A DNA stretch of 64,000 nucleotides from Dehalococcoidia bacterium (GCA_965249605.1 OZ252245.1:1294967-1358966), one strand, 5' to 3'; numbered from the stretch's first letter, positions 19,571-59,141 are shown. Notes: generated by a model not told the origin, from the sequence alone. Numbers and translations: made by a program.

Positions 19571-19615
19571 TGGTGGCGCATACGGGATTCGAACCCGTGG
19601 TCTCCGCCTTGAGAG
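19571..19615 (-). repeat. distal att repeat: partial copy of the tRNA-Glu(CUC) 3' end
   Basis: tggtggcgcatacgggattcgaacccgtggtctccgccttgagag is identical to 59065-59109. Four of the next five bases also match. No 5' half of a tRNA follows. Confidence 0.8.
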
Positions 19616-19636
19616 AGCGGGCTATTACAAATGGAG

Positions 19637-20422
19637 TTAGCGTAACTGTCTGATGGGAGAGTGAAGGCGGTGTTGGGCGGCGGCAGCTACGACGTTGTAT
19701 GGCTTGTAAATCTTGAGCATGCGAGGACTAGTCCATCCCATGATCGATACTAGCAGCGATTCATCACCCATCCACATTCGTGTGAAGGTGTGGCGTAATG
19801 TATGAGCGCTTGCCCGCTTACCACCCAAGCCGGCAGCCCGGAAGGCGCGCCTCACAGCGCGACTTGCCGCATTTGGCGTGCGCCATGTCCAAGGCAGGGA
19901 ATTAGTTACCATGCGGGCTACCCACGGGTGAATGGGCAACTCGCGTTCGCCGGTCTTGCCGTTGACAACGACTCTTCCTAACCATGGGTCTATCTTGGTG
20001 ATGGCAAATGCCTCGCCGATTCTTACTCCCGTGTCAGCAAGAAGCCATAGGAGAGCGCGCACCTGAGGCGTGAACCCCTCATGCGTTAGCAGAGTGGCTA
20101 GTTCATCGCGGCTCAAAGCGCGGGCTACCTTGCGGGAAACGAAGGGTGGAGGGATGGAGGGCATTGGGTTCTTCCGAAACAGGCGACGCTGTTGGAGCCA
20201 GCGATAGAAAGCAGAGAGCAGCCTAAAGTATGTTGAGCGCGTCTCATCGGACGGTCCCTGTTTAGCGAGGAAGGCTTCTATCTGGTCGGGGCGGTTAGGT
20301 AGGCGCGTGAACGCGGTGGCAAACCTACCGAGCCGGTATCGGTAGCCTTCCAGCGTTCTAGGGGAGACTCCCACTGCTGTTCGTGCTGCAACGAACTTGT
20401 CGATAGCTGCCTGTGTCTTCAT
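19637..20422 (-). CDS. tyrosine recombinase / phage-type integrase (paralogue 1)
   Basis: 261 aa with an N-terminal SAM-like core-binding region. Catalytic signatures are LLADTGVRIGEA (Arg), HTLRHTF (HxxR) and GWTSPRMLKIYKPY (Tyr). Confidence 0.9.
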   Translation of the reverse strand: MKTQAAIDKFVAARTAVGVSPRTLEGYRYRLGRFATAFTRLPNRPDQIEAFLAKQGPSDETRSTYFRLLSAFYRWLQQRRLFRKNPMPSIPPPFVSRKVARALSRDELATLLTHEGFTPQVRALLWLLADTGVRIGEAFAITKIDPWLGRVVVNGKTGERELPIHPWVARMVTNSLPWTWRTPNAASRAVRRAFRAAGLGGKRASAHTLRHTFTRMWMGDESLLVSIMGWTSPRMLKIYKPYNVVAAAAQHRLHSPIRQLR

Positions 20423-20958
20423 CGCTCTAGACTAACGAGGCTCAACTAGAGAAGGTTCAATGCTAGATAGGGACACCTGGCTCCTGCGCCACCCTGACGA
20501 CCTCAAAGACTTGCGGCGAAACGTCCTGTCGGCGAACAGGCCCAAGCACTACCGCCGTCTGCAAAAAGTAGGTAGGCTGGCATGTGGCCGGTGGACCTGA
20601 CATTGCGCCCGGTATGCCCAACGCCGAACGCTCCGACTACGACCAGGTGGTGTTGGCGCGTCGGCTGCCGAATGCCCGAACTGGCGCAGTCGTGAGAACC
20701 GAGCCTGCACTCCCAGCTCGTTGGGGGTTATAGCCTCGGGCAGTATGGGGTCCGCCTGGTTACAGCTCCAGAACGCACCTCAGCGTGAACGCGGCAAAGT
20801 ACGTACGTCATTCATAAATGGTGGCCATTATACAGAACTTCGGTCTACGTTTTCGTCGGGCTCTGTCTGGGTCACTTGCTTTGCTGACGGGTGGTACGAA
20901 AGCTGGGACGGCAATGTTGCATGGATTACTGACCTGCCCCCGGTCTTTGTACCCCCTG

Positions 20959-21692
20959 CTATGTTATTCCTGCAAGCACAGGAGCAGTGTCCGCGGGCAT
21001 GAGGACCTCGGGCGCCGGCGGCCTGTAGCCCAAGGCGCTGTGAGGCCTGACACGAGTGTACGTCTGCCTATACTGCTCGGTCAGCACCTTCACCTCTAGC
21101 AGCGTGTAGAGGATCTCCCTGTCCAGCAATTCGTCCCTCAGCTTGCCGTTGCAGCTCTCGATGTAACCGTTCTCCCACGGTGATCCAGGCTCGATGTACA
21201 GCGTCCTGGCTCCTACCCTCCCAAGCCACTCACGCACAGCCCTGGCCGTGAACTCTGGTCCGTTGTCCGACCGGATGTGGTCAGGCACTCCCCAAGTCAG
21301 CATCACCTGGGCCAGCGTCTCTATCACATCGGGAGACCGTATGCTGCGGGCGGCCCGGATCGCCAGGCATTCCCGAGTGTACTCGTCCATGACGGTCAAC
21401 AGCCTCACCCCTCTGCCATCCTCGGTCCTGGTCTGCACGAAGTCGTACGCCCACACGTGGTTCTTTCACTCCGGCCGCAGCCGTACACAGGAGCCGTCAC
21501 CCAACCACGCTGTCGCAGCAGAGCAGTGATTCTCCGGTAGCCGTACCTGCCGAATCTACCGGCCAGTTCCACAATCTCCTCAGTGAGCAGCTGCTCCTGT
21601 CCCACAGGTCTCGGCTCATAGCGCTGGGTGGACCGGGGATGGTCCAGGACCTTGCAGGCTCGTCGCTCGGCGACTCCGAGAGTATCTATCAC
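20959..21692 (-). pseudogene. IS3-family transposase OrfB (rve DDE domain) with internal deletion/frameshift and a premature TGA
   Basis: ORF 21405..21692 (HTH_21-like, ..YGYRRITALLRQRGW) and ORF 20959..21456 (DDE core ..HIRSDNGPEF..PWENGYIES..) are in different frames. The joint reads ..LGDGSCVRLRPE*KNHVWAYDFV, with a stop where Trp/Tyr is expected. Confidence 0.7.
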
Positions 21693-21724
21693 GTGGCCGA
21701 CGAACTGGCGACGACGGGAGGGGC

Positions 21725-22003
21725 TTAGAAGTTTCCCTCCGCCGCCTCCCTCAGTATTTGGTTGTCCACCGTCAGGTCAGCCACCGCTCTCCTGAAGCGA
21801 CTGTTCTCCGACTCCGGCTGCTTCAGGCGTCTCAGCTGGTCGATCCTGAGGCCACCGTACTCGGTGCGCCACCGGTAGAAGGTCTGTTGGGCCACTCCAA
21901 TCCGCCTGGCGGCCTCGGCGACCGTGTTGCCCGCGGCTATGGCTACCTCAGCCTCTCTGAGCTTGTTGATCACCTGCTCCGGTGTGTGTTTCCTCTGGGC
22001 CAT
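21725..22003 (-). CDS. IS3-family transposase OrfA (HTH)
   Basis: MAQRKHTPEQVINKLREAEV..AEAARRIGVAQQTFYRWRTEYGG plus a leucine-zipper-like tail, typical of IS3 OrfA. Confidence 0.8.
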   Translation of the reverse strand: MAQRKHTPEQVINKLREAEVAIAAGNTVAEAARRIGVAQQTFYRWRTEYGGLRIDQLRRLKQPESENSRFRRAVADLTVDNQILREAAEGNF

Positions 22004-22066
22004 TTCTCCCCCTTTCTACTGCCCAAGATTAACATTGCTCTTGGACCAGTTGTCGGCGGGCAGGTC

Positions 22067-22566
22067 CTGTGGGCCAGGATGAAGCGGGACATGACCGCCG
22101 ACTCTCTCATCGAGGTGGTGCAGGAGGCGGTGGACCGGACGGGCATGGACCGGGTCCCGATAACAGATCGGACTAGGTTGCTGAGCGACAACGGCCCCGG
22201 CTAGGTTTCAAGAGCATTCAGAGACTACCGGGGCATGGTGGGTATCAAGCACATCCTGGCTGCTCCCTTCCACCCGCAGACCAACGGCAAGCTGGAGCGC
22301 TATCACCAGACCCTCAAGCGGGACGTAAACCAACTGCCGTACGAGATGCCATCAGACCTGAAAGCGGCCATCGTGGCCTTCGTCAGCTACTACAACTCCC
22401 GGCGCTACCACAAGGCCCTGGGCAACGTGACACCGTCAGACGTCCTCAGGGGCAGACGAGAAGACATATTGTGACGGAGGAAGGAGGTGCAGACCCAAAC
22501 AATCGAGAGACGAAGGCGCTACAACAGGGCCCTCAGGGAGCTCACCAGACCTCCATCCAGCCCCTG
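22067..22566 (+). pseudogene. 3' remnant of an older rve-type DDE transposase gene, disrupted by the IS3 insertion
   Basis: Reads LWARMKRDMTADS..RLLSDNGPG*VSRAF..FHPQTNGKLERYHQTLKRDV..YNSRRYHKALGNVTPSDVLRGRREDIL*RRKEVQTQTIERRRRYNR. It has two in-frame stops and its 5' part is missing. Confidence 0.6.
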
Positions 22567-22792
22567 ATCTCTCGGCTCCCAATGTGTCCCACTATTGCTG
22601 GTTGCTAACAACGCTTCGGTCTATGACGTAAAGGGAGCACGGGAAGAGACCAAATCGAGGTCCTCCTTCATGTGTCCGATGCCAACCACCGTTTCCTCAG
22701 CTGTCTGACGCTGCGGCTGGATAAACCCAAGGAAAACTATGGAAGGTGCCTCACCATTGCAAAACATACTGTGAATGACTATCATTGTACTC

Positions 22793-24009
22793 ATGATGGA
22801 CGTTACACTCCCCCGCCTCGTTGGGCCAAGCCTTCAGCACCGTCTCCGGGTCATGCCTGCGGTGGTGGTGACCGGAGCCCGTCAGACGGGGAAGAGCACC
22901 CTAGCACAGGAGCTTATGCCGGGGGACGGCTCTTCCTCTCCCCTGGACGACCTCGACGTGGTAGATGCAGCCCGCCGCGATCCCGAGGCGCTCCTGGGGG
23001 GCAGCCAGCAGGTGACCCTTGATGAGGTGCAGCGAGAGCCGGACCTTCTGCATGCGGTGAAGCGGGCTATAGACCAGCAGCGCCAGCCGGGGAAATTCCT
23101 CATCACCGGTTCGGCCAACCTGCTATTGATGCGACAGGTCTCCGAGTCCCTTGCTGGCCGGGCCAGCTATCTGACCCTCTGGCCGATGACCCGGCGAGAG
23201 CAGCTGGGTCTCGGACGTGTGGCATCTGGGAGGAGTTGCTGAAGGCCCGCGACGAGGAATGGCTCGACCTGGTGGCTGCCCAACCTGACCAGCCGGAGGA
23301 CAGGCTGGCGCTTCGCGGTGGCTTCCCGCTACCGGCCATCCACCTCAAGGCCGCTCAGGACAGGGCCGTCTGGTTTGACGGCTACGTGCGCACCTATCTG
23401 GAACGGGACCTCCAGAACCTCTCTTCCTTCTCGGCAGTGCCAGACTTTCGCAGGCTAATGCGGGCCGTCTGCCTCCGCATGGGCAACCTTGTGAACCAGG
23501 CGGAACTTGGCTGTGACGTGGCTCTGCCCCAGCCGACGGTGGGCCGCTACCTCAACCTGCTGGAAACGTCGTACCTGCTCGTTCGACTTCCCGTCTACGC
23601 GGTGAACCGCACCAAGCGGCTGATCAAATCTCCCAAGCTCTACTGGGGCGACACCGGGGTGGTGTTGCATCTCACCCAGGAGGAGGAGCCCCGAGGGGCA
23701 CATCTGGAGAAACTGGTGCTTCACGATCTGCTGGCCTGGCGGGACGCACGGCTCGACCGGGCTGAGGTCCTCTACTGGCGCACGGCCATCGGCGAAGAGG
23801 TGGACTTCGTGATTGAGGCTGGGGACCGGCTGCTGCCCATCGAAGTCAAGGCGACGGAGCGGCCGCGCCTCCGAGACGTAGCCCATCTGCGCACCTTCCG
23901 GGCCGAGTATGGCGATAGGGCCAGGGCAGGCCTGTTGCTCCACGCTGGCAATACCCTGGAATGGCCGGCACCGGATGTGCTTGCTGCGCTCTGGTGGAGG
24001 GTGCTATGA
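22793..24009 (+). pseudogene. AAA+ ATPase with DUF4143 domain, split by a frameshift (or sequencing error)
   Basis: ORF 22775..23242 carries the Walker A motif (TGARQTGKST) and LDEVQREPDL. ORF 23236..24009 carries the DUF4143-type C-terminal half (..YVRTYLERDL..PKLYWGDTG..EVDFVIE..IEVKA). The frames change around 23200-23240. Confidence 0.65.
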
Positions 24010-24681
24010 GGCGTCGTCTGGCGGGGATGGGGTTCAAAAGTCAACAGGGTTTTGGGTATCGGCTCCCACAGAGGACCGCCAGGGTGGAGGCAGGTCTACT
24101 AGGGCCGGACCGGGTGGTAGCGATAAATCCGCGCCATGGGTGGGTGGCCTGCTGCTCATCTCTCTGCTGTTCATGCTGAACGTGACGTTAATCTTTACCG
24201 GCACAACTGGCATGGACCTGTACGGCTTCTACACACTGGACCCGGTGGCAGCTCAACCCCTGCCGCTGGTGCTGTCCACTCTGTTGAATCTGGGCATGGT
24301 CTTCCGGCCTACTGTGCCAATGAAAACATTCGCGAGGGTTAAAACCCCAGATAAGGTTCCGGACCAGCGGACCGGTCTGTCCACGGAGGCGCTCTACACC
24401 CAGCCGAGGCCGAGTTGTTACGATCCTACAGCCGACGCGCCATACATAACCAACTAACAGATATGGAAGCTTGCGAACTGTGCAAAGCTGACGGCCGACT
24501 TCCCAACTCTGCATAATGAATCCGAGTATACCGTAGTGGTGGACGGAGATACTGGGGTGATAGCACCGTACCGGGGCGGCGATTCCGGTACGGCTGGCGT
24601 GTTTATCAGGGGTTCGAAATTCGGTAGGTGGACCTTAGCGGACAAGCTAACCGCATCCGATTCCGACGATCAGGACATTAT

Positions 24682-27600
24682 ATGAGAACAATCCATATAG
24701 GAACTTTCCCGCGACTGACAATCATCGGCGTGCTCCTCGCCGTTGGTGTGCTCCTCCTCCTCATCATGGCTCCGGCCAACGCCGCCAACGCGCCGTCCAA
24801 TTTCAGCGCGACCGCCGGCGATACCCAGGTGACGTTAACGTGGAATGACCCCAACGACACTACGATCACCGGCTACCAAGTGTTGCAGGTAGCAATCACC
24901 AAGCTGACCGGCGGCAGTAGCGCTGCAGGCGACAGGTTTGGGGATTCCGTAGGCGTGCACAACAACCGGGCCGTGGTTGGAGCGCCCTTACAGGACACTG
25001 CGGACGGAAACAATACCCTGACCGACGCCGGATTGGTCCACTTCTTCAACTTCAACACGAGTTCCACTGTGTGGGAGCGGGAAACCGAACGGGCCTTCAT
25101 TGGCGTGTCGGGAGGCGACAAGACGGGGTCCTCCGTAGCGGTGTCCGGCAATACGGTCGTGTATGGAGTCCCCGAGTACGACAACGAGATTTCCAATAGC
25201 GTCACTTATTCTGATGCCGGTAGGATGATTGTATACGTCAAAACGCAAGGATTAGGGTGGGGCTACCCCTGGGATCCGAAGGGCGAGGCGGCAAATGATC
25301 GGTTCGGATATTCCGTCGCGGTGGACGGCGGCACCGCCATCGTGGGGGCGCCGAGAGTCGAGGTCAGCAACCTCGCGCTTGCCGGTAAGGCTTACGTGGA
25401 CACCAAGAATAACGACAATAGTTGGAGCCGGAAGGCCACATTGGACGCCGGCCTCAACGCCGGCGCCGGTAGCTCGTTCGGCACTTCAGTAGCAGTGGAC
25501 GGCAGCACTGCCGTTGTAGGGGCATTCGGGGACGATGCTGGCAAGGGCGCGGTTTACGTATTCACCCAAAGCGGAAACGCGTGGACCCGCGCCGCCAGGC
25601 TCACCGCCTCCGATGGCGCTAATAACGACTCGTTCGGCCGGTCCGTAGCGATTGACGGCGATACCATCGTGGCAGGGGCTTGGCGGGACGGCGACGGCGG
25701 AACCGATTCCGGCTCTGTGTACGTGTTCACCAAGCCCCAGGCTGGCTGGAGCAACATGACTCAGACCGCCAAGCTAACCGCCTCCGACGCCGCTCAAAAC
25801 GATTTCTTCGGGTGGTCGGTAGCGATTGACGGCGACAATGTGGTTGTTGGGGCCTACGGGAATGACGATGACGGCTCCAACTCCGGTTCGGTTTATCTGT
25901 TCACCAAGCGCAGCGGGGTATGGGTAACCACCACCGAGATTGTGAAGCTGACCGCTCCCGACGCCGCGGCGGGCGACCAATTCGGATATTCCGTTGCGGC
26001 TGGCGGTGGCAGCAGGGCCATAGTCGGGGCGCCCGGGGACGACCGCGACAGCGATTCTGACATCGGCGCCGCTTACGTGTTCAGCATCCCCGCATGGACC
26101 GGCATTTCCGGAAGTGGAGCGGGGACCACGTCCCACACGGTAACCGGCCTGACCAACGATGTGGAGTACACTTTCTGGGTTCGTCCAGTTGTGGGCAACG
26201 CCCTTGGCCCTGCCTCCGGCAGCAAACACGCCACGCCGCAGCAATCGCCGGCGGCCACGCCGGCCAATCTGACTGCCGTGGCGGGCGTTGGCGAGGTTAC
26301 GCTGTCCTGGGACGACCCCAACGACTCCACCATCACGGGCTATAAGTATCGGCAGAAAGAGGGCAGCGGCAGCTTCGGAAGTTGGACCAACATCGCCCTC
26401 ACCGACATCGACTCCACCAGCGTCCCGGGCAAGATCAGATACACGGTGACCGGCCTGACCAACGGCCAAACTTACACCTTCCGAATTCGGGCGGTGGACG
26501 AGGATGGCGATACCGGAAACTCGAACGACGTCACCGTCACGACGATACTAGCCGCTCCGACGACCCTCTCGGCCACGGTGGGCGCCGGCCAGATTGGGCT
26601 TAACTGGGACAATCCGAACAACACCCTGATCACGAAATACCAGTACAGCACCAACGGCGGTACGAGCTTCATGGACATCACCGGCAGCAACGCGACCACC
26701 ACCGCGTACACCGTGACCGGCCTGGACAACGGCACGGAGTATACCTTGGCAGTGAGGGCGGTAAACGCTGCAGTCAACGGTGAGGCATCCACCGTGACCT
26801 CCACGCCGTTGTTGCCTGCGCCGACCAATCTGGTGGCTACGCCCTACAGCGAACGGGTAGTCCTGGAGTGGGACACGGGCGGCGTAGGGTACGAACAATA
26901 TCAGATCACCATCGAGACCAGCGGCACCGGCGTGGTTCCCACGCCTTACATAGTATCGGCCTCGTCCGAACCAAAAACTTCGGTCGAGATTACTCCATTG
27001 ACCGACAACACGGCATACACGTTCGCCGTATTGTCGGTGTATGTCCCCCCGGGATTAAGCGGCACCCCAAAAATCACCGGAATGGCAGCCGTAGTGACTG
27101 CCACCCCGATACCGGTACCGGCCGCCCCGGTGAACCTCACGGCCATGCCGCTAGACATGCAGGTCCAGCTTACCTGGGATGACCCCGCGAATACGACCAT
27201 AACCAAGTATGAGTTATTGCAGCTCGCCGAGGAGAGTGGGCTGATCGCCTCCGACGCCGCTAAAAACGATCGGTTCGGCGTGTCGGTTGCGGTGGACGGC
27301 AACACCGCCGCGGTCGGAGCGTTCCAGCCCGATTATGTGGACTCCGGTACTAACGTTAGCAGGCCCGGCGCGGCCTACGTCTACACCAAGGATTCCAACG
27401 GTGCGTGGAGCCAGCAGGCGAAGCTGACCGCCTCGGATGGCGCGGATGGTGACGAGTTCGGAATCTCCGTAGCGGTGGACGGCGATATCGTCGTGGTTGG
27501 GGCCCGTGGGAACGTCAGCAAAACGGGCGCAATCTACGTGTTCACCAAGCCTTCCGATGGCGACTGGACCTCCACCATTACCGAGACCAAGCTCACCGCT

Positions 27601-48832: not shown

Positions 48833-49664
48833 ATCCACACTAGCCCAGTGGAGCCATCATCAGGCTGGTACGGCCCCCAAACAGGCGCACATATCCATCC
48901 GAGAGGCGCTGGACGCTTACAACTGGCCCTCGGAGCTCAAGTACGAGGTCTTCCTCCAAGGCTCGTACAAGAACGACACGAACCTCGGCAGGGACAGCGA
49001 CGTCGACGTGGTCGTCCGGTTGGCGTCCAAGCTCAAGCCTCGCGTGGTCGCCCTATCCGGCGAACAGCTTCAGGAAGACGGTTCCCACAGATGTGCACTG
49101 GAACGCTGGCAGTCGTTTCGAGACCATGCAATGAAGGCGATGAAGGCCAGATTCGGGAAGGCCGTGAAGAGCGGCCGCAAGACCATAAAGGTACCGAAGG
49201 GCAAGATCCCGGCGGACGCTGACCTCGTGGTCACGCTGAGCCACAGGGAGGGGATAGGGTTTTATCTCCCCGAGGAGGGACGCTGGGTCGTGAGCTTTCC
49301 GCACCAGCACCATCAGCGGGGATCAAAGAAGGAAAAGGCGTCGAACGAGCGCTTCAAGAGGACCGTCCGCATGTTCAAGGTTGCGCGGAACCAGCTGGAC
49401 AGCAGGCGAGTGCTCACTAAGGAGGACGCTCCCTCCTACTTCATAGAGTGTCTGCTCTACAACGTCCCCGACGATCTCTTCGTACCGAAGCTGGCGCCGA
49501 CGTACGCAGGTATCTTGACCTGGCTGAAGACCGCGAAGCTCAAGGACTTCCAGTGCCAGAACGGGCAGGTGCCCCTGTTCGGGCGACAGCGAGAACAATG
49601 GACCGTGAAGAAGGCGCAGGCGTTCGTCAAGGCACTGCAAGACATGGGAGACACGTGGCGTTGA
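48819..49664 (+). CDS. Pol-beta-fold nucleotidyltransferase, SMODS/CD-NTase-like
   Basis: Overlaps the upstream gene by 14 nt. It has the motif GS-x11-DVD (LQGSYKNDTNLGRDSDVDVVV) and a third acidic site ADADLVV. The C-terminal half reads ..FPHQHHQRGSKK..FKRTVRMFKVARNQL..PSYFIECLLYNVPDDLF, which I recognise from SMODS-type nucleotidyltransferases. Confidence 0.75.
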   Translation: MPIPESTLAQWSHHQAGTAPKQAHISIREALDAYNWPSELKYEVFLQGSYKNDTNLGRDSDVDVVVRLASKLKPRVVALSGEQLQEDGSHRCALERWQSFRDHAMKAMKARFGKAVKSGRKTIKVPKGKIPADADLVVTLSHREGIGFYLPEEGRWVVSFPHQHHQRGSKKEKASNERFKRTVRMFKVARNQLDSRRVLTKEDAPSYFIECLLYNVPDDLFVPKLAPTYAGILTWLKTAKLKDFQCQNGQVPLFGRQREQWTVKKAQAFVKALQDMGDTWR

Positions 49665-49748
49665 GATTGGAAGCCACCTCCTTTACGGGGTGGGCCTGCC
49701 GTGGCGGAGGCCTCTAGGGGCACAAGGGTGGGGGCGCAACCCGTGGTG

Positions 49749-50378: not shown

Positions 50379-52388
50379 CTACCGCAGTATTCCGAACTGC
50401 CGCACCAGGGCATACAGTCCGGGCAGGATGATGAGAATCTGCGCGGCAATGGGCCACGCGAGGGGGATGCCGAGCAGCCGGTAGCCGAGGAAGAGCACAA
50501 GGACGGACGTGGCGCAGGCCATGCCGAAGCCCAGGGGAGCCGCGCCGCGGCGCATGCCGATCCACACGCTGACGAGGGCCAGCGTGGCCGCTAGGGTGAG
50601 GATGGCGAACTCGACCACCTGTCCCTCGTCGGGGTCGATGCCCGCCGGCCCCAGTGAACCGCGCACGATCTCTTCGATGTCTCCCCGGAAGGTCATGACG
50701 TCCGCGCCGGGGGCCACCGTCGCCGCGACGGGTATGGTGCGGGGCTTGGGCGTGAACGTGGCGGTGTTCCATGCGGTCCACTCGGTATAGCAGGGTGCGC
50801 CGGAGCAATCCCCGCGGGCGCGGACGCGGACGCTGACGGGAGAGAAGGCCGTGATGGCGGCGTCTGTGTGGGAGACGCGGATGATCTCGCTGGTCTCGGA
50901 GATGGGGGCGATGCTGAAACGCCGGAGCTGGAGCTCGTAGATGGTTGCGCCGCTCACGGCGGACCAGGTGAGCCAGAACTCCCGGTGAGTGTCGTAGGCA
51001 ACGTCGCGGGCCTTGTCGAGGGTGAAAGCCGCGGGCGCGTCGCCGAAGCTGAAATGGGCGGGCGACGAGTTGCCCCACTCGGAGTAGTCGCCGGCGGCGT
51101 TCTCGGTGACGGAGGCGATGCGGTAGCGATAGGTGACGGACGGGACGATGGTGGTGTCCTTGTAGTAGGACAGCGACGCCGGGAGCCAGGGGTTGCCGAG
51201 GGACACGGTGTTGGCCCAGCGGGCGACGCCGCCAATGACCCGCAGCTCCTCGCGCTGGGCGGCGTAGTTGTCCACATCGCCGGCAGGCGCGGACCACGAC
51301 AGGGTGATGCTCGCGGCGCTGCGGCTGGTGGCGAGGCCGCTGGGTGGGGACGGGCCGGTGACGACGGCGGTGGAGGCGGTATAGAGCAGCACCGCCGAGT
51401 CCACCCCCCCATAGGCGGTTCCGGTGACCGTGCCCTGGGCCGTGCTCCAGGCCGAGACCGCGCAGGTCCAGGGCTGGGCCGTGCCGCTGGCCCCGGCCGG
51501 GAGCATGTGCACCGCGTTCTGGTGCTCCAACGAGAAGGCTTCCACGTCGAACTTGGGGTTGCCGGCCCGCTGGCCCTGGGTGAACAGGGGACGCCATTGC
51601 TGGGAGAAGCGCTGGGGCACCTCTCCTACCAAGCCCTCCACCGTCTTGACCCGCCAGTCGGGACGGCCATCGCCGTAGGAGTCTCCCGCCAGGGTGCGGA
51701 GGACCCATCGGAGCTCCGCGAGGTGGGTGTGGCCGGGGCCCACCAACGGCAGCATGGTCCGGGCGGCGTGCAGGCCCAGCTCCCCAGGGGCGATGTGCTC
51801 CAGCGCCTCCTGGGGAAGGGCCAGGACCCGCAGGTTGTTGGCCAGGGTGGAGCGGTCCATCTTCAGTTGGGCCGCCAGCCCCGCCACCGTCAGCCCCTCG
51901 ATGGTGTCCAGGGCGTGCCGGTAGGCCCGGAGCCGCTCGATGTCCGTCAGGTCCTGGCGGTCATCGTTCTCCGCAAAGGCGATGACCGCCATCTGCTCGT
52001 CGGTAAAGGGCTGCAGGGTGACGGTCACCGTCTCGCCCCACTGGCCCCGGGAGTGGAGGAGCTTGAGGGCGTCCCGCCGGCGATGCCCAAAGGCCAGCTG
52101 AAAGCGTTCCCCCTGGGCCCGGGCGCCGGGAAGCTGCAGCAGCCCGTTGTCCAGGATGCTCTGGGCCAACCCCTCCAGGGAGGCCGCGTCTTGTGCAGCC
52201 CGCGGCTGCCAGGGGTTGTCGTCCAGCAGGTCCAGGGCAACGGGCGCCCTGGTCCCGATGCCCTGGACCAGTTGCCCGACATAGGCCCGGCTCATGCCGA
52301 TCGCAGCGGCTATGGCCCGCACCGACATCCCCTGTGCCCGAAGCCGGAGCACCTCTTCCAACTGTGGGTGCGTTTCTGTGGTCGTCAC
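50379..52388 (-). CDS. HTH + ParB/Srx-like domain protein fused to Fn3-like domains and a C-terminal multi-TM region
   Basis: Start set at a GTG preceded by GGAGAGAGGAGA; the upstream 126 codons of the track ORF are Gly/Pro/Arg low-complexity. The ParB N-domain signature is LLDDNPWQPR..LEGLAQSILDNGLLQ..FQLAFGHRRRDA. Two Fn3-like units follow (SPPSGL..ITLSWSAP..YRYRI; FWLTWSAVSGATIYELQ), then 3-4 TM helices at the C-terminus. Confidence 0.7.
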   Translation of the reverse strand: MTTTETHPQLEEVLRLRAQGMSVRAIAAAIGMSRAYVGQLVQGIGTRAPVALDLLDDNPWQPRAAQDAASLEGLAQSILDNGLLQLPGARAQGERFQLAFGHRRRDALKLLHSRGQWGETVTVTLQPFTDEQMAVIAFAENDDRQDLTDIERLRAYRHALDTIEGLTVAGLAAQLKMDRSTLANNLRVLALPQEALEHIAPGELGLHAARTMLPLVGPGHTHLAELRWVLRTLAGDSYGDGRPDWRVKTVEGLVGEVPQRFSQQWRPLFTQGQRAGNPKFDVEAFSLEHQNAVHMLPAGASGTAQPWTCAVSAWSTAQGTVTGTAYGGVDSAVLLYTASTAVVTGPSPPSGLATSRSAASITLSWSAPAGDVDNYAAQREELRVIGGVARWANTVSLGNPWLPASLSYYKDTTIVPSVTYRYRIASVTENAAGDYSEWGNSSPAHFSFGDAPAAFTLDKARDVAYDTHREFWLTWSAVSGATIYELQLRRFSIAPISETSEIIRVSHTDAAITAFSPVSVRVRARGDCSGAPCYTEWTAWNTATFTPKPRTIPVAATVAPGADVMTFRGDIEEIVRGSLGPAGIDPDEGQVVEFAILTLAATLALVSVWIGMRRGAAPLGFGMACATSVLVLFLGYRLLGIPLAWPIAAQILIILPGLYALVRQFGILR

Positions 52389-52501
52389 TGCCCGTTCTCC
52401 TCTCTCCGCTCCCCCGGAGGTCCTGCGAACTCCCTGGGGCGGGCTCCCCGAGTTGCAATGGCCGCTGCCCCGCAACGGCGGCAGACCCACCCCCAAGGCC
52501 C

Positions 52502-52858
52502 CTAGCCGCCGCACGCCTCCTTGATGTACCGGTCCACCCTGTACACGCTGATGCCCAAGGCGCGGCTGATGGCCGCCAAGGATACGCCGGCGCGGACCAT
52601 CTGCACGGCCTGCGGCTGGCACCGGGCCTGCTCCTCGGCAGCCGCCCGGACCCGCGCCTTGACACGCTCCTGGGCCTGCAGGCGGCGGTACTCTCCCACC
52701 ACCCCCGGCCGGTCGTACCGGCAGGCGCTGAACGGGCAAGTGAAGCAGTCGTGATGGAATCGGCACCCATTGCCGTACATGAGCGGTCCTTTGTAGTAGT
52801 GGTTACGGTGGGCGCCCTCGTAATCGAGCGGTCCTTTGCTGTGGTTCTTCCCACTCAT
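52502..52858 (-). CDS. small Cys/His-rich protein with C-terminal HTH
   Basis: MSGKNHSKGPLDYEG..CRFHHDCFTCPFSAC.. then GVSLAAISRALGISVYRVDRYIKEA (HTH). Start trimmed from track ORF 52502..52954. Confidence 0.55.
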   Translation of the reverse strand: MSGKNHSKGPLDYEGAHRNHYYKGPLMYGNGCRFHHDCFTCPFSACRYDRPGVVGEYRRLQAQERVKARVRAAAEEQARCQPQAVQMVRAGVSLAAISRALGISVYRVDRYIKEACGG

Positions 52859-52950
52859 GCGCCGGCCTCCTCCCCCGCAAAACACAGACTGACCGGGTTG
52901 CACCCTTCCCACGAGCACCTCTTGACACGCTGCAGGGCTTTTTCCCTCAA

Positions 52951-53081
52951 ACAACCCGGCACTCCGGCACCGCCCCTTATTTCCCTAGCTAAAAGCGCTA
53001 ATTCCCAAAAGATTAAACTAGCTATGGAATAGCTACGAGTGCCGGGTTGTCAGCTTTGCGGTGCCGGGTGTGCCGGGTTGT
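52951..53081. promoter_or_regulatory. iteron-like repeats flanking an AT-rich block (candidate replication origin and/or operator region)
   Basis: GTGCCGGGT(T)GT occurs at 53039-53050, 53061-53070 and 53070-53081, with an inverted copy ACAACCCGGCAC at 52951-52962. The AT-rich stretch 52981-53035 contains three TAGCTA palindromes. The region sits directly 3' of the primase-helicase gene. Confidence 0.45.
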
Positions 53082-53126
53082 TTGGGGGTAGAAAGTAAGA
53101 AAACATGCTGAGTACGTGTGAGAGTC

Positions 53127-55439
53127 TCATTGCGATGCGCCCTCCAGCCGCTCAAAACACCACGTCTTCCCTTGGTTGGTGCGGCCATGCGTAATAGCAA
53201 AGGCAACCCCCAGCGCATCTTCCAGCGCCTGCAGTTGACGGCCCAGGGCGACCTCGCTGGCGTAGTACCACTTGATGTTCTCCCGCTCGGCGATAGCGCG
53301 CAGCTCAGCGTGGAGGGCTTTGGTGTTGACGGCCCGGCCCGCGTTTGGGATGGGAGCCAGGGCCTGTTGGGAGGTGGGGGGCGCGTGCCCGTCCAGCCAC
53401 ACATCCAAGAGGCGGTAGAGGTCGTGCTCTTCCACGGCGTACTGGTGCTGCGCCTGCTTCATCTTGCTGAGGGCCTCGGCGACCCGGTCAGCGATGCCCA
53501 GCCCTTCGCCGATCCGGGATGCTACGGAGGCGAAGTCCGCCAGCCGGATGCTAGGGTCCACGGACTGTGGTGTGCCGACGGCCAGCACCTTGTTGAGCAA
53601 CCGTGCGTATTCAGACAGCAGAGCGTTGCGCTGAACAAGCACCTCCTGCAGCAGCTCATACTCGCTGCGTTTCTGGTTGAGCTTCTCCAGGCGGAGCAGC
53701 ACCAGCCGTTCCGCAACGTCCTCCCGGCGAAACTTGGGGGTCCGGGCCGTCAGCCCCAGGAAGGCGTGGGGGGTGAACGTGGCGGCGTCGTTGGTCGTGA
53801 AGAAGGCGCGGGTGGTGTACTTCATGCCCGTGGCGCTGGCGGCCAGGGCGTCCTCCAACCAGGGCACGTAGTGGTCCACGTTGTCGAAGGCGCAGAAGGC
53901 GCTGTGGGTGGTGGCCACGAAGAAGTCCCGCTCCCCATCTTTCCGGAGCACGTCGACGTTAAAGGCGGGCCCAAAGAGCAACTGCCCCACCCGCCGCATG
54001 AGGTTGGACTTCCCGGAACCGGCGGGCCCCACGGCCAGGAGCAGGGGTTTGGTGGGCTGCACAGACTCGAAGGCCAAGGAGAGGAGCCACACCGTGAACA
54101 AGACGCGTTGTTCCTCTGCGGTGTGCGGCGTGTCGTCGCCGGATGCGAAGGTGAGGGGCCGCACCAACGTGTCGCCCAAGAGGTGGGGCTGCTCGCGCTC
54201 TTGGAACGTCCACGGGCTTGCCGTATCCGCCGGCGTGAACAGGATGCCGTCAGTCCCGTTGTCCACCAGCTCGATGTGCTTACCGTTCAGACGGAGCATC
54301 TGCCCAGAGCCCGTGTCCAGGTAGAGGTGGTTGGTGCCGGCGTCGTAGTACGAGAAGGTGCGCACCATGGCCTCTTTGCCCGTTTCCCAGGTCTCTACCA
54401 GGATGTCCTCCTTGATGTACTTGAAGAGGGCTTCGGCAGCATTGATCCCGTAGTCCCGGTTGAGCACCCGCTTGATCGCAAACCCGTCCAGGGAGCAGAG
54501 CAAGCGCGTGGTGTAGTCGAAGTAGTAGGCGACGCCGTCGGCATGGATAAGGTCGCCGTGCTTCATGAGCCCTTCGCGGATGATGCGTTGCGAGGCCGGC
54601 CGCAGCCTGCTGCCTTCCCACAAGACAACCGTCTCCTTGAGGGCCTGGGGGTCCCCGTGGCCGTTGCCGTTCACCGGTGGCGGGGGCGCTGCGTAGAAGG
54701 GCGGTGCGGCGGCGGCCAACGCTCGCAGCTGTTCCGGGGCGCCCCCCCGGTCCAGCCAGTCGCTCACGTCGCCGTGCTCCGAGAGGCCTGGCAGGTCCAG
54801 AACGACAAGGGAGGCGGCTACGGGGTAGAGGGCCTTTGCCACCTGGCCGGCATGTTTCTGGCCGGCGTCGTCGTGGTCCGGGACAATGGCCACATGGCGG
54901 CCCGCCAGGGAGGCGTTGTATTCCGGCCGCCACTTGCCGGCCCCCATGGCGTTGGTGGTAGCCACAAGGCCAAGACCCTGAAGTCGGTCCGTGTCCTTCT
55001 CCCCCTCTACGATGAAGACGGTCTCAGTGGGGTCCGCCTGCGAGAGCTCCGGGAGCCGGTACAGCACGCGTGTTACGCCACGAAGGTTGTAGACCCATTC
55101 ACCAGGGCGGGCAGGGTCTGGGCGGCGCTGGGAGAAGGACTTTCCGGCGAAGCGGACCACCTGGAAGAGCAACCGCCCGTCGTGGTCCACGTAGTCGTAG
55201 GTCCGGTCAATCGCCCTGGCTTCATTGCGGCCCAAGGGTTGGGCCAACCCCAGGAGCTCCGCAAACTGTGCGGGCGTCCAGGACCGGTCGCAGGGACCAA
55301 AGCAAAGCGCCCCGCCGTCGGCAAACACCCTGAGCGATGGGGTGCGGTCATCGTGTTGCGGGCATCGGGCCAAGTAGCGGCCCTCGGCGTCTGGTCCGGT
55401 GACGCCCTGGAGATGGCTAAGGATGGTGGTGATGTCCAT
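53127..55439 (-). CDS. primase-helicase (zinc finger + Toprim + P-loop NTPase), P4-alpha/phage-plasmid type
   Basis: Start trimmed to MDITTILSHLQG. The zinc motif is CPQHDDRTPSLRVF..CFGPC and the Toprim motif is VFIVEGEKDTDRL..IVPDHDDAGQKHA. Walker A is AVGPAGSGKSNL and Walker B-like is FCAFDNVD. Confidence 0.85.
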   Translation of the reverse strand: MDITTILSHLQGVTGPDAEGRYLARCPQHDDRTPSLRVFADGGALCFGPCDRSWTPAQFAELLGLAQPLGRNEARAIDRTYDYVDHDGRLLFQVVRFAGKSFSQRRPDPARPGEWVYNLRGVTRVLYRLPELSQADPTETVFIVEGEKDTDRLQGLGLVATTNAMGAGKWRPEYNASLAGRHVAIVPDHDDAGQKHAGQVAKALYPVAASLVVLDLPGLSEHGDVSDWLDRGGAPEQLRALAAAAPPFYAAPPPPVNGNGHGDPQALKETVVLWEGSRLRPASQRIIREGLMKHGDLIHADGVAYYFDYTTRLLCSLDGFAIKRVLNRDYGINAAEALFKYIKEDILVETWETGKEAMVRTFSYYDAGTNHLYLDTGSGQMLRLNGKHIELVDNGTDGILFTPADTASPWTFQEREQPHLLGDTLVRPLTFASGDDTPHTAEEQRVLFTVWLLSLAFESVQPTKPLLLAVGPAGSGKSNLMRRVGQLLFGPAFNVDVLRKDGERDFFVATTHSAFCAFDNVDHYVPWLEDALAASATGMKYTTRAFFTTNDAATFTPHAFLGLTARTPKFRREDVAERLVLLRLEKLNQKRSEYELLQEVLVQRNALLSEYARLLNKVLAVGTPQSVDPSIRLADFASVASRIGEGLGIADRVAEALSKMKQAQHQYAVEEHDLYRLLDVWLDGHAPPTSQQALAPIPNAGRAVNTKALHAELRAIAERENIKWYYASEVALGRQLQALEDALGVAFAITHGRTNQGKTWCFERLEGASQ

Positions 55440-55446
55440 GGGGCCC

Positions 55447-55605
55447 CTAACTCGCCAGGACCTTGGGGGCGGTGGGTAGGTGGCCGTTAGTAGCGAGCTC
55501 GAGGCCGCAGTTGAAACACTTGGCGCCCCTGTACCAGGGGTGCCCCAACACGACGAGCCGGCCTGGACACTTCGGGCAGCTTCCGCGGGGTAAGAGGTGC
55601 AACAT
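55447..55605 (-). CDS. 52-aa zinc-ribbon protein (below the track length cut-off)
   Basis: ATG preceded by AAGGAG. The product is MLHLLPRGSCPKCPGRLVVLGHPWYRGAKCFNCGLELATNGHLPTAPKVLAS, with two CxxC pairs. The stop is 7 nt before the primase ATG. Confidence 0.5.
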   Translation of the reverse strand: MLHLLPRGSCPKCPGRLVVLGHPWYRGAKCFNCGLELATNGHLPTAPKVLAS

Positions 55606-55682
55606 TCCCTCGCTCCTTGTTCGCTATGCTGGGCTGACAGGGACCGTTTCCCGGGAAACGGTACCCTGCCCGCCCATTGCAT

Positions 55683-56087
55683 CTAGGCGTCATCGGTGGC
55701 CAGGGGCCGCGGGTGACGCGCTACCCAGACGGCGACGTACTCACCCCACAACTCCCAGTGGTCTTCTGGGAGCCGGGCGATCACATCCCGCTTGAATGGC
55801 TGATGGTTCGCCACGGCGTAGCGGCCGTTGCCCGTGAAGTCCGCGAGGATGGCCAGGGCGAGCTGCGCAGGCCCTGAGCCGCCATAGCCCCACCCAAAGC
55901 CCGTCGGGCTGTGGTTCCACAGGTCCAGGCGAAAGGGGAGGGGAGCCTGCTCATCCCCGCCCTTGGCCTCGCTGGACCAGACGAGAACCGTGGCGTTGCC
56001 CGATGCCCGGCTCCCGGTGTACCTGCAGGGCAACATGCGCCGCGTCGGTGTGTAGGGCCACGTCGTCTGGCGCACGGCGTCACGCAT
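55683..56087 (-). CDS. phage/mobile-element conserved hypothetical protein
   Basis: Start trimmed to MRDAVRQ. It contains the motif HSPTGFGWGYGGSGPAQLALAILAD, which recurs in small phage-borne proteins of unknown function. Confidence 0.55.
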   Translation of the reverse strand: MRDAVRQTTWPYTPTRRMLPCRYTGSRASGNATVLVWSSEAKGGDEQAPLPFRLDLWNHSPTGFGWGYGGSGPAQLALAILADFTGNGRYAVANHQPFKRDVIARLPEDHWELWGEYVAVWVARHPRPLATDDA

Positions 56088-56307
56088 TGTCCAACTCCCG
56101 CTCCAAGTCCTTCCGCAAGGCCTTGATGACGTTGCCAACGCCTCTCCAAGCGACCGCCGGGCCGAGGAAGCGGTGGACGCGCAGGAAGTGCAGGGAGTCG
56201 CATGCCCGCTGGTACAGAGCAACCCGTTCCTCGGGGACTCCCAGTTGCTCATGTAGCGGCGGGGCCATGGCTCCGGCCGTGATGTTGGAGGGTAGCTGCT
56301 TTTGCAT
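56080..56307 (-). CDS. hypothetical protein
   Basis: 75-aa ORF with non-repetitive composition, overlapping the next gene start by 8 nt (operon-like). Confidence 0.35.
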   Translation of the reverse strand: MQKQLPSNITAGAMAPPLHEQLGVPEERVALYQRACDSLHFLRVHRFLGPAVAWRGVGNVIKALRKDLERELDNA

Positions 56308-56375
56308 TGAGCCCCTTTCTCTTACAGGCCCTGCAGGTCCTTGTCCCGCTCCGCCGCTTTCTCTTGGAGGTGGTC

Positions 56376-56771
56376 CTACAACCCCTGCAGGTCCTTGTCC
56401 CGGTCCGCTTCGGCCTCGGCCTGGTCGGCCCGGGCAATGGGGGCCATGCGCTCCCGGGCCCGCAGCTTACGAAGCTCCGAAATCATGCCGTCCCGGTGGC
56501 GGATGATCTGCTCGATGACCTGGTTAGGCAGCCTCCACACCTGGCCCGCAAACTCCACCCAGGTCACCATGGGGTGCCGGTCGCCCGACATGTAGTCCGA
56601 GGTCACCACGTAGTGGTCCACCGTTGTGGGGCCCCGCTCTCCGCGGACGTCCTCGCGCTCCATATGGAAGCGCACGACGTTAACCAGACTCTGGCGGCGG
56701 GCCTGGTTGGGGAGCATTCCCTTCCGGCCTCGCCCGGGCTTCGCCTTCCGCGTTGGTTTGCGTGGCGCCAT
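56376..56771 (-). CDS. hypothetical protein (basic N-terminus)
   Basis: 131-aa ORF: MAPRKPTRKAKPGRGRKG.. then a globular-looking part. Confidence 0.5.
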   Translation of the reverse strand: MAPRKPTRKAKPGRGRKGMLPNQARRQSLVNVVRFHMEREDVRGERGPTTVDHYVVTSDYMSGDRHPMVTWVEFAGQVWRLPNQVIEQIIRHRDGMISELRKLRARERMAPIARADQAEAEADRDKDLQGL

Positions 56772-57110
56772 GCCTTCCTCCTTGTTGCTGTATTGCTACT
56801 CTTGCTCGTCTTAGTCTTTCGTTCAGATAGATAGCAACGCCGGCAAAGAACAGGCTCACTCCGGCAAAGGCCCATATACCGACGCAACTGCACTCCATCG
56901 CTCTCCTTCGTGCTCAGGGTTTGTGTGCTTACCTCGTATTGCTGCTGTCCGGACCGTAGACGCTCGCTGGCCTCCCTGCCCCAGTGCCTGGCCCTATGGC
57001 TTTCTCTAGCTTGCGCACCGTCTTCAGCCTTAGCGGCCGTCTACTGGTCATCACATAGGACAAGCACGCGGGACTGATGCCAGCTTGCCCTCCTGTCGCA
57101 AGCTAGCCCC

Positions 57111-57737
57111 TCACGCGCGGATCATGCGCTGGTAGAGGTCGTGGGCCGATGCCTGGAGCCCCTGCACCGTCGGCTCTAGCGCTTCCTCAGCTGCGGCCCT
57201 GGCTGCGGCCCCGGCTGCGTCCCTGGCTGCGGCCCCAGCTGCGTCCCAGGCTGCGTCCGCAACTGCGTCCTCAGCTGCGTCCCCAACTGCGTCGCTGGCT
57301 GCGGCCCTGGCTGCATGTATCATGGGGTATGCGGCCTCCGCTGTTTCCGGCCCCACGACCGGCAGCGCAGCCAGCGGCGCCGCATGGTCCCTCAACCCCG
57401 CCAACCTCAACCACGCTGGGAGGTGCGTCCGGATGAGCCAGTCCGCAGCCATCCACGCACGGCGGGCGTCGGCGTCCGGATCGCCCGCCGTACCCGCCAG
57501 CAGGGGGATATACTGCACCAGCTGCACGCGTTCCGCGTCGGAGCGCATCCCGTCGTTCCATTCACGCCCAAAGGCCGCCAACACCGGGCTGACGCCGGCG
57601 GGATGGTCGCTGTGGCTCTCGCCTGCCCACCACGCCACGGCCTCCAGCAGACATACCCCTTCCTCGCGAGTGGTGTGGTTGCCCCGCTGCAACACCAAGC
57701 TGTCGAGGGTGTGCAGTGGGGCTGCGTGCTCTGTCAT
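57111..57737 (-). CDS. conserved hypothetical protein with C-terminal Ala/Asp-rich tandem repeats
   Basis: ATG preceded by AGGAG. The product begins MTEHAAPLHTLDS..GVCLLEAVAWWAGESHSDHP..SPVLAAFGREWND... The C-terminus is (DAxxDAAxDAA)n. Confidence 0.6.
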   Translation of the reverse strand: MTEHAAPLHTLDSLVLQRGNHTTREEGVCLLEAVAWWAGESHSDHPAGVSPVLAAFGREWNDGMRSDAERVQLVQYIPLLAGTAGDPDADARRAWMAADWLIRTHLPAWLRLAGLRDHAAPLAALPVVGPETAEAAYPMIHAARAAASDAVGDAAEDAVADAAWDAAGAAARDAAGAAARAAAEEALEPTVQGLQASAHDLYQRMIRA

Positions 57738-58027
57738 GGCGCTCCTTTCAGGCATAGGTTGCTGACGGTAGTGCAAGGGTTGGGCCCAGGGCGCCCGGGC
57801 GCAAAACGCGGCGGGGAGGAGCGCCGCGGCCTTGGAGGCGCACCGCGGACGCCCTGGGTGCGATGGGGGGGCATGGTGCAATGGACTTCGACTTGCCCGT
57901 CATAACGAGGGGGCCGAGGTGAGTGGAACGGCCGCTGAGGGTTTGGGCCTCACGCAGTTTATGTGCGGTCACTAAAAACCCCCAGCCAGAGTAGCTGGGG
58001 GTAGGCTACCGTGATAAACGAAACATG

Positions 58028-58447
58028 TCAATAGGATTCGTTTATCCGCTTTGTGCGGTGTACACCCCTCTTAGGGGGGTCGGCCAACACTCTGCCAAGC
58101 TCGTTCTCGTCAATGACGACCATGCCACCTGGCCCAGGCCCCTTGATGCGCCCCACCACCTGGAGATGGCTGCTGCGAAGCCAGGTGTGAAGAGTGTGGG
58201 GGGATTTGTGGTACTTGGAAGCCGCATCCTTGAGAGTAATGGGCTGCACGCCGCAATCGGCCGGCAGGCCAAGCAATTCAGCAAGTTCACCGGGTGCGAT
58301 GGGACGAGACTTGTTGGTGTATGCTGCGGTCACCAGCTCTGCGATCTCCTCGTCAGGGTAACCCCGCTCGCGCATCAGGCGGGTCACCGTTTCCCAGGAA
58401 ACGGTTCCGGCTACGGAAGCGCCGTTCTTCGCCTTTAAGTCTACCAT
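58028..58447 (-). CDS. HTH DNA-binding protein, excisionase/regulator-like
   Basis: The C-terminal half ITLKDAASKYHKSPHTLHTWLRSSHLQVVGRIKG..VVIDENEL resembles Xis/MerR-type winged HTH proteins. It is located at the end of the module next to a tRNA-derived att-like scar. Confidence 0.55.
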   Translation of the reverse strand: MVDLKAKNGASVAGTVSWETVTRLMRERGYPDEEIAELVTAAYTNKSRPIAPGELAELLGLPADCGVQPITLKDAASKYHKSPHTLHTWLRSSHLQVVGRIKGPGPGGMVVIDENELGRVLADPPKRGVHRTKRINESY

Positions 58448-58553
58448 GCCGCCCTCCCACCTTTCGAGCAGAAGCCCATCAAGTTCTAGCGACTTGGGTG
58501 ACTTCCGGCTACTTTGCTATCGCCACCCTCCGCGCAACCGCCACCAGAGGTCG

Positions 58554-58603
58554 TGGTGCCCCCAGCGGGATTCGAACCCGCGGTCTCCACCTTGAAAGGG
58601 CGA
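58554..58603 (-). other. orphan 3' half of a tRNA-Glu(UUC)-like gene (att-type scar)
   Basis: The reverse complement reads TCGCC-CTTTCAA-GGTGG-AGACC-GCGGG-TTCGAAT-CCCGC-TGGGGGC-A-CCA, i.e. anticodon arm, variable region, T arm, acceptor 3' strand and CCA. No matching 5' acceptor strand (GCCCCCA) or D arm lies upstream. Confidence 0.6.
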
Positions 58604-58751
58604 TCATATGGCAAGCCCACTTCAGCCAAACGCCGCCTTTCCGACTTTAGGGTAGCCTCCAAACGCATCTTCTTCAGCACAAGGTCGTTCCACTTGGTAG
58701 CTACCCCCTTCTCCACCGGTTGCTACACACGTTATTGAGCCCCTTTAGTTG

Positions 58752-58997
58752 CTAAGTCTTGGGACGCTTCACGACGTACTGCGCTGCATCTACTGGACCC
58801 ATGCCAATCTCTTCGATAGCCCCAACGAGGGCTTCGACGGATTCCTTGAGTTGAAGAGACAGGAGCTCGATTGCGCCCATATTGAAAGCTCGTCCACCAG
58901 TGTTATTAGTTCCCAGTTTTAGGAGCGCACTTGAGAGGCGCTCCACTGCCTCTACGAAACGCAAGTCCAACTCATTGGCCTCGTCAAACATAGGCAT
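58752..58997 (-). CDS. hypothetical protein (81 aa)
   Basis: Track ORF 58752..59075 trimmed to MPMFDEANELD because the longer version overlaps the tRNA gene. Confidence 0.35.
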   Translation of the reverse strand: MPMFDEANELDLRFVEAVERLSSALLKLGTNNTGGRAFNMGAIELLSLQLKESVEALVGAIEEIGMGPVDAAQYVVKRPKT

Positions 58998-59064
58998 TCT
59001 TGGCCCTCCCCTTCCTTGAGTGGACCTCCTAGTCCAGGCCAAACTACAAACCACCACTAAGTAG

Positions 59065-59141
59065 TGGTGGCGCATACGGGATTCGAACCCGTGGTCTCCG
59101 CCTTGAGAGGGCGGTGTCCTTGGCCACTAGACGAATGCGCC
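59065..59141 (-). tRNA. tRNA-Glu (anticodon CUC), CCA encoded
   Basis: GGCGCAT-TC-GTC..GAC-A-CCGCC-CTCTCAA-GGCGG-AGACC-ACGGG-TTCGAAT-CCCGT-ATGCGCC-A-CCA folds as a cloverleaf by hand. Confidence 0.9.

Follow-up and report, generated by a model that had tools for sequence, protein, structure and literature searches.

The 64,000-nt window analysed here, one strand of Dehalococcoidia bacterium DNA (GCA_965249605.1, OZ252245.1:1294967-1358966), contains at positions 19616-59064 what is very probably an integrative island that entered the gene of tRNA-Glu(CUC) by site-specific recombination, through a Xer-like integrase of the family represented by its int1 and int3 genes. Two identical 45-mers, TGGTGGCGCATACGGGATTCGAACCCGTGGTCTCCGCCTTGAGAG, occur at 19571-19615 and 59065-59109, in direct orientation on the same strand. 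The repeat grows to 50 bp at 98% identity if one mismatch (19616 A versus 59110 G) and the four matching bases beyond it are included. A third copy of the 45-mer is absent from both strands of the window, and the chance of an exact pair in 64 kb is estimated at ~1e-18. The right copy belongs to an intact tRNA-Glu(CUC) gene at 59065-59141 (minus strand), recognised by ARAGORN and by Rfam (67.5 bits); both methods also find tRNA-Leu(CAA) at 59265-59350 (plus strand). The 45 bp correspond to the 3' part of tRNA-Glu(CUC), from the anticodon loop (CTCTCAA) to CCA, and the 5-bp extension to the 5' strand of the anticodon stem. At the other end, the stop codon of int1 (19637-19639) lies 21 bp from the left repeat copy, on the island side.

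A clean empty site exists in a relative, OZ244559.1 (L002; loci in other genomes and contigs are given L numbers), a 2.86-Mb Dehalococcoidia chromosome obtained by searching one genome per species with the MFS protein of the right flank. Positions 1-9209 of L002 match window 10335-19620 at 92.9% identity, positions 9160-14095 match window 59065-64000 at 94.2%, and the sole overlap of the two matches is the 50-bp repeat. In a three-way alignment, the left flank of L002 runs straight into the intact tRNA-Glu with nothing between, and the limits of the island, 19616 and 59064, follow from this site. Derived from the window, the junction expected at an empty attB is GCAGCGCTGCGGGGT + 45-mer + GGCGGTGTCCTTGGCC, and that expected in an attP circle is ACCACCACTAAGTAG + 45-mer + AGCGGGCTATTACAAATGG. 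Composition is not uniform across the boundaries: tetranucleotide correlation with the flanks is 0.72-0.87 outside and drops to 0.34-0.68 inside the island, where the GC of segments varies from 0.53 to 0.66. The flanks carry ordinary chromosomal genes, luciferase-like, DUF58, MoxR and a giant transglutaminase/HEAT gene on the left, and MFS, SDR, a LuxR-type response regulator and a histidine kinase on the right. A first-pass annotation of the window had proposed the exact 45-bp repeat in tRNA-Glu(CUC), the integrase ending 21 bp from its distal copy and chromosomal flanks (a MoxR operon on the left; tRNA-Leu, MFS, SDR and a two-component system on the right), and had pointed to an empty site in relatives and to composition profiles as checks; these proposals all hold, and both checks support them.

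The interval therefore has the features by which Islander recognises an island: one end is an intact tRNA gene, the other is a displaced piece of that tRNA in direct orientation, a tyrosine integrase lies inside (int1 and int3 are both intact), and the close relative L002 lacks the interval, its junction falling at the repeat. The solved structures closest to int1 by sequence are Brujita Gp33 (PDB 5vfz, E = 3e-8), XerA and XerD, and int1 has no match in IMG/VR. Int1 and int3 retain the R, K, HxxR, W and Y residues, the third copy, int2', ends before HxxR, and all three share one orientation. Within the window, neither a T-loop-like motif nor a CUC fragment is found beside int3 or int2'. At 13 loci with integrases related to int1 (L019, L020 and eleven metagenome loci), the sequence downstream of the integrase was checked for a T loop of tRNA type. 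At six of these loci (L019, L020, L043, L044, L045 and L051), whose integrases share 48-64% identity with int1, a tRNA-Asp(GUC) fragment running from the anticodon loop to CCA lies ~13-190 bp past the integrase stop; the remaining seven are mostly more distant or partial matches to int1. The attL layout is thus a family trait, and the crossover is likely to occur in the anticodon loop. In Islander, a 3' fragment is present in 3760 of 3919 islands, and anticodon-centred sites, found in 2083, are the commonest class (PMC4383910). A small integrase family is thereby defined, with a clear preference for tRNA anticodon loops, Asp and Glu.

In the mechanism that we propose, attP of the element would bear a copy of the tRNA from the anticodon stem and loop to CCA. 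A crossover in or near the anticodon loop, at a point that is presumed, would split the tRNA gene; the element's copy would restore a functional tRNA at the right end (attR), and the original 3' part would end up at the far end beside int1 (attL). The acting integrase, a helix-turn-helix (HTH) protein as directionality factor, a circular replicating form and a route from cell to cell are all postulated. The element would be integrative, possibly self-replicating and mobilisable. Its backbone belongs to a family present in co-occurring Dehalococcoidia, with the order tRNA, HTH, DUF6166, primase-like, ParB-like, cargo, integrase and tRNA fragment; phage structural genes and conjugation genes are absent from the parts of this family seen. 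The 39.5 kb of the island are a mosaic, most probably formed by recombination among sibling elements and by the activity of IS3-family insertion sequences (IS). Table 1 lists the features.

Table 1. Features of the island and of its two ends, in window coordinates (TM, transmembrane; ORF, open reading frame)
Feature	Coordinates	Strand	Characteristics
attL, displaced 3' fragment of tRNA-Glu(CUC)	19571-19620	-	45 bp exact, 50 bp with mismatch at 19616; L002 homology reaches 19620
int1, intact Xer-like tyrosine integrase	19637-20422	-	261 aa, outward-reading; PF00589 (Phage_integrase), PHROG 1, NCBIfam Xer models
Degraded IS3-family element	20959-22003	-	orfA 21725-22003; frameshifted orfB 21405-21692 and 20959-21456; HTH_Tnp_1, rve, rve_3
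Second IS3-family fragment	22075-22610	+	rve_3 ORF 22235-22474; 82% identical to IS3 in L018
Frameshifted AAA_14/DUF4143 ATPase gene	22775-24009	+	frameshift 23236-23242; both halves match PADLOC candidate PDC-S01
giant1, predicted surface protein	24628-34134	+	3168 aa; signal/TM N-terminus, 27 FG-GAP_2, 10 fn3, cadherin, Pro/Thr linker, C-terminal TM anchor
int2', integrase copy truncated before HxxR	34223-34903	-	within 1092-bp duplicate 34243-35334
IS3-family element	35367-36502	-	orfA 36125-36502, orfB 35367-36011
giant2, paralogue of giant1	37069-45921	-	2950 aa, 36-45% aa identity to giant1; 28 FG-GAP_2, fn3, Pro/Thr linker, TM anchor; ~99.5% identical to L015/L018
int3, second intact integrase	46423-47271	-	72% aa identity to int1; no downstream tRNA fragment
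Pentapeptide-repeat protein and CD-NTase/CBASS-type cyclase	47576-49664	+	47576-48832 and 48819-49664; 14-bp gene overlap
ParB-like protein	50379-52766	-	795 aa; HTH, ParB_N and HTH_ParB domains; fn3-like C-terminal half; 51423-53041 97% identical to L124
Primase-like protein	53127-55439	-	770 aa; CHC2 zinc ribbon and toprim N-terminus; C-terminal 500 aa without family
DUF6166 protein and two ORFs	55683-57881	-	DUF6166 55683-56252; ORFs 56376-56771 and 57111-57881
HTH_17-like protein (excisionase/MerR-like)	58028-58447	-	139 aa; weak match, E = 0.003; first gene inside right end
Putative fossil att, tRNA-Glu(UUC)-like 3' fragment	58554-58602	-	anticodon loop to CCA; 106 bp from HTH gene start; 27 bits on tRNA model
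Terminal 462-bp segment	58603-59064	-	low GC (0.53), 80-aa ORF 58752-58994; arm adjoining present att core
attR, intact tRNA-Glu(CUC)	59065-59141	-	3' 45 nt (59065-59109) = repeat

Occupied sites are found in an independent metagenome assembly, that of sample ERZ26167216, with the left junction in L014 (ctg494998) and the right junction in L125 (ctg495338). In L014, int1 is identical at 784 of 786 nt (99.7%) and att plus the 21-bp spacer at 66 of 66 (100%), while on the chromosomal side the next 270 bp are 90% and the transglutaminase gene 94.8% identical to the window; upstream of int1 the two sequences split at 20430. Read inward from the chromosome, identity of L125 to the window is 94-96.7% in the right flank, 100% in tRNA-Glu, 99.8% in the terminal 462 bp, 95.9% in the tRNA-Glu(UUC)-like fragment, 73-77% in the spacer and HTH gene, 99-100% in the next two ORFs and 97% in DUF6166 and primase (97.6% for DUF6166 itself). 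The same contig also carries window 27118-51440, the central 24 kb, contiguously and at 98.4-99.5% identity; between the points matching window 52499 and 51440 it holds at least 23 kb of extra DNA, ~11 kb of that stretch being outside the sequence examined. These genomes resemble each other more closely in their island DNA than in their chromosomes, which points to recent exchange. The int3 block of ctg495338, bounded by an IS3 and an aminotransferase gene, was at one time taken as lying at an unrelated locus; this was withdrawn, the same contig having the tRNA-Glu right junction ~23 kb away. In the ctg495338 copy, no part of the right end is less conserved than the HTH region, where L125 encodes a longer HTH protein (10001-10681; 226 aa, with a duplicated segment) and a second HTH_17 gene (12552-12896).

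The backbone genes recur next to other tRNA genes. From the tRNA inward, they are a small ORF, the HTH protein, two ORFs of no assigned function, DUF6166, the primase-like and the ParB-like genes; the CD-NTase and pentapeptide-repeat genes follow on the other strand, and then int3. The core order tRNA, HTH, DUF6166, primase, ParB is repeated in L124 (ena:ERZ26167216:ctg494998, 31318-51713) beside tRNA-Gly(GCC), where window 51423-56784 is matched at 96-97% and the HTH end at only 75%, and it is found again in L016 beside tRNA-Gly(CCC), without a recognised DUF6166 gene. L124 has two DUF6166 genes. HTH_17 genes hold the same position in L016, L124 and L125, and the 139-aa protein, for which an exact-protein look-up gives no match, is a candidate regulator or directionality factor. 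Known relatives of the primase-like protein cover only its toprim N-terminal third and occur on phages and plasmids alike; it has no match among PDB sequences, nor has an 851-aa ORF version of it (the true product has 770 aa) in an exact-protein look-up. The replicon proposed in the first-pass annotation, a generous term, comes down to the ParB-like and primase-like genes, no Rep initiator and no ParA being recognised among the island genes.

Inside the right end lies the tRNA-Glu(UUC)-like 3' fragment, with an anticodon loop reading CTTTCAA. The same fragment, with a leader of ~70 nt, lies ahead of the HTH gene in both L124 and L125. On the anticodon side of the fragment, the window and L124 differ in sequence, the divergence beginning exactly at the loop, and identity to L125 steps from 99.8% to 73% across the fragment. 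A live tRNA gene at 58554-58602 was considered and rejected: the fragment has no D arm, its 27 bits do not reach the gathering score, and its 5' side is not the same in the sibling copy. In our reading, the fragment marks a former site-specific junction that the element carries as a fossil; the att core found today would have been added later on the outer side, together with its short arm. A separate observation concerns the 3' end of the intact tRNA-Glu(CUC). At 59050-59071 (minus strand), the GCCACCA of the tRNA and the first island bases form a terminator-like hairpin of 9 bp with a T-rich run behind it, so that the tRNA has received a new downstream hairpin from the island; a similar CCACC/GGTGG hairpin lies 3' of the UUC-type fragment.

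The interior is mosaic. A 1092-bp duplication (34243-35334 versus 46611-47702, 96.7%) carries the 5' part of an integrase gene and its upstream region, and breakpoints relative to sibling loci fall at 20430, 27118, 51440 and 52499 (the last two versus ctg495338). A composite transposon was rejected as an explanation for the block in ctg495338, the two flanking IS3 copies being different IS. Three integrase paralogues, three transposase relics and giant cargo genes had been announced in the first-pass annotation, together with accretion or rearrangement in place of one clean insertion. Two of the integrases are intact and one is truncated, and the relics are all remnants of the IS3 family. The annotation was right on each count, its last point being borne out by the integrase paralogues, the duplication, the IS3 remnants, the breakpoints and the fossil att. 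The support is for a mosaic that is not a textbook tandem array, with int3 and int2' lacking a tRNA fragment of their own. Classical accretion, by which three elements, each with its own integrase, would have entered tRNA-Glu(CUC) stepwise, is unlikely. It would explain the three integrase copies in the same orientation and the extra tRNA-like fragment inside the right end, and tandem arrays are known at tRNA genes, with 125 in Islander (PMC4383910). However, only two CUC-type copies exist, and no T-loop-like motif accompanies int3 or int2'; the internal fragment is of UUC type, lies 462 bp from the tRNA and not between integrase-bearing units, and is found as well in the sibling element beside tRNA-Gly; and the units do not each possess an integrase and a fragment, as a tandem array in Islander does.

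A single element that inserted once and cleanly, and acquired its duplications and IS later in place, would account for the presence of only two perfect att copies and for the contiguity of the central 24 kb (27118-51440) in a second assembly. Nevertheless, we hold this to be improbable: compared with sibling loci, identity swings between 73% and 99.8% within short stretches, primase and ParB match an element beside another tRNA at 96-97% when the HTH end does so at 75%, a fossil att junction lies inside the island, and internal GC varies as described above. The chances are poorer still for a decayed prophage, a temperate-phage remnant that has lost its structural genes. In its N-terminal third, the primase resembles phage primase/helicases and IMG/VR contigs (33-53% identity), and the homologue L017 sits among repressor, methylase and resolvase genes; yet plasmids carry this primase domain just as often, genes for capsid, portal, terminase and tail have no match in Pfam (candidate genes picked across the island; small ORFs not all scanned) or in PHROGs (ten island proteins), and L016, L124 and L125 show no structural genes within the 20 kb seen. 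In the same Pfam scan, relaxase, coupling protein, type IV secretion and FtsK/TraB-type genes have no match either, and the island would not be classed as an integrative and conjugative element. Finally, an assembly artefact, in which the repeat joins two unrelated regions, is scarcely credible: apart from the origin of the window in a metagenome-derived contig nothing found supports it, and this danger, raised in the first-pass annotation, recedes in view of a second assembly (ERZ26167216), whose contigs reproduce each of the two junctions and the central block, and of an empty site that matches the predicted sequence exactly.

Several points weigh against the reading as an integrative island of tRNA-Glu(CUC). 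Between the window and L014, the identity of giant1 is no more than 85-91%, a divergence that is older than the near-identity of the int1-att end and implies more than one event; the island ends and the cargo thus have different histories. The overall GC of the island is close to that of the flanks (0.621 versus 0.638). The island is known here from its integrated form only, no circular or excised form having been seen, and neither int3 nor int2' is accompanied by its own att site. The HTH_17 match of the 139-aa protein is weak, and without a recognised Rep initiator or ParA autonomous replication is conjecture. The two island junctions in ERZ26167216 belong to separate large contigs with comparable coverage (17.0x and 16.4x), which reflects either two strains or one rearranged genome.

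The cargo is dominated by giant1 and giant2, which make up 46.5% of the island and are, from their predicted domains, membrane-anchored surface proteins. Window 27118-34134, in giant1, is 98.4% identical to L123, and window 23879-31545, which includes most of giant1, is 85-91% identical to L014. Across genomes whose backbones are ~95% identical, the giant genes are 98-99.5% identical. A second cargo module combines a CD-NTase with a pentapeptide-repeat protein. The CD-NTase matches PADLOC Cyclase PDLC00788 over its full length (6.9e-80) and qualifies as a cyclase of the cyclic-oligonucleotide-based anti-phage signalling system (CBASS); it also matches the NCBIfam anti-phage NTase (2.8e-64, below the cut-off of that model) and is 100% identical in L015. 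Its membrane-anchored neighbour, of 418 aa, has two N-terminal TM helices and pentapeptide repeats and no PADLOC match. Together they may constitute a CBASS-like pair with an undescribed partner. The frameshifted PDC-S01-like ATPase gene is dead.

The window element and its tRNA-Gly(GCC) sibling L124 share the fossil and differ in the outer segment and in the intact tRNA. It is tempting to propose, as a possible though doubtful extension, that the HTH-primase-ParB family switches to another chromosomal target when a further att cassette is stacked on the outer side of the existing one, and that the island is a vehicle by which giant genes for eukaryote-like adhesins pass between co-resident Dehalococcoidia that may be sponge-associated. 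If so, the fossil would record a retargeting event. The sponge-symbiont setting is our assumption, suggested only by the names of related metagenome-assembled genomes and their naming schemes. Nothing specific was found in the literature on tRNA islands in Dehalococcoidia or on FG-GAP proteins in sponge Chloroflexi.

In the more distant genome L001, tRNA-Glu is again the neighbour of the transglutaminase gene, from which other genes, 3.1 kb in all, separate it. There the tRNA-Leu/tRNA-Glu pair (L001 14430-15052, CBDHDD010000002.1) is inverted relative to the MFS gene, and the pair therefore appears to occupy a rearrangement-prone spot. A gene of 516-523 aa without Pfam match is found between tRNA-Glu and the transglutaminase gene in L014 (11127-13246) and L001 (16281-17883) and is absent from the window and L002; this pattern conflicts with that of island presence and suggests recombination in the left flank. 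The product of the transglutaminase gene of the window (11309-18703, minus strand) has 2464 aa and combines three transglutaminase cores with HEAT repeats and Ig-like domains; the gene lies directly upstream of an 838-aa ORF, MoxR and DUF58, and carries internal DNA repeats (14285-14493 versus 15353-15564). Between this gene and attL are the frameshifted remains of an HNH domain from a group II intron maturase (AI2M-like_HNH, E = 2.6e-5), at 18834-19178 (plus strand) and, in another frame, at 18724-19065; they predate the island, since L002 is collinear there.

Collectively, these data delimit a mobile island precisely, with an empty site as control, in a marine Dehalococcoidia lineage that is uncultured and has few mapped mobile elements, and they locate giant FG-GAP/fn3/cadherin surface-protein genes and a CBASS-like pair on DNA that appears exchangeable in these genomes. 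The island can be likened to integrative mobilisable elements and phage-satellite-like islands with an integrase and a primase: its integrase and a small HTH gene sit at opposite ends, it has a replication gene of primase type and defence-like cargo, and virion and conjugation genes are not recognised among the genes scanned. It differs from them in that no packaging-redirection genes or helper were identified and in being much larger through its two 9-kb genes. Integration-dependent immunity is the layout known from Brujita, and nothing in the island shows such a layout; Brujita Gp33, the best solved-structure sequence match to int1, is of similar size class and only distantly similar.

The ssrA islands of Dehalococcoides (PMC3146451) share with the present island the bacterial class, a site downstream of a small RNA gene, a direct repeat of the 3' end of that gene, modular integration and cargo parts with discordant histories, a ParB-domain gene, the lack of transfer genes and absence from sister strains. 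They use a large serine recombinase (DsiB) and a tmRNA target with a 20-bp repeat, measure ~12 kb and form tidy tandem arrays (PMC3146451), whereas here tyrosine recombinases, a tRNA-Glu target, a 45-bp repeat and 39.5 kb are found, and the element is not an ssrA island. The closest likeness is to the anticodon-centred islands of Islander (PMC4383910), which have in common with it a tyrosine integrase beside one att, a regenerated target tRNA, a displaced 3' fragment at the far end and an identity block from the anticodon loop to the 3' end. Here, the host is an uncultured Dehalococcoidia, the integrase is unusually small (261-282 aa) and without arm-binding domain, the extra integrases have no fragments of their own, and a fossil att of another tRNA is present. 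The mechanism is thus that of the textbook, and the island one of the common anticodon type.

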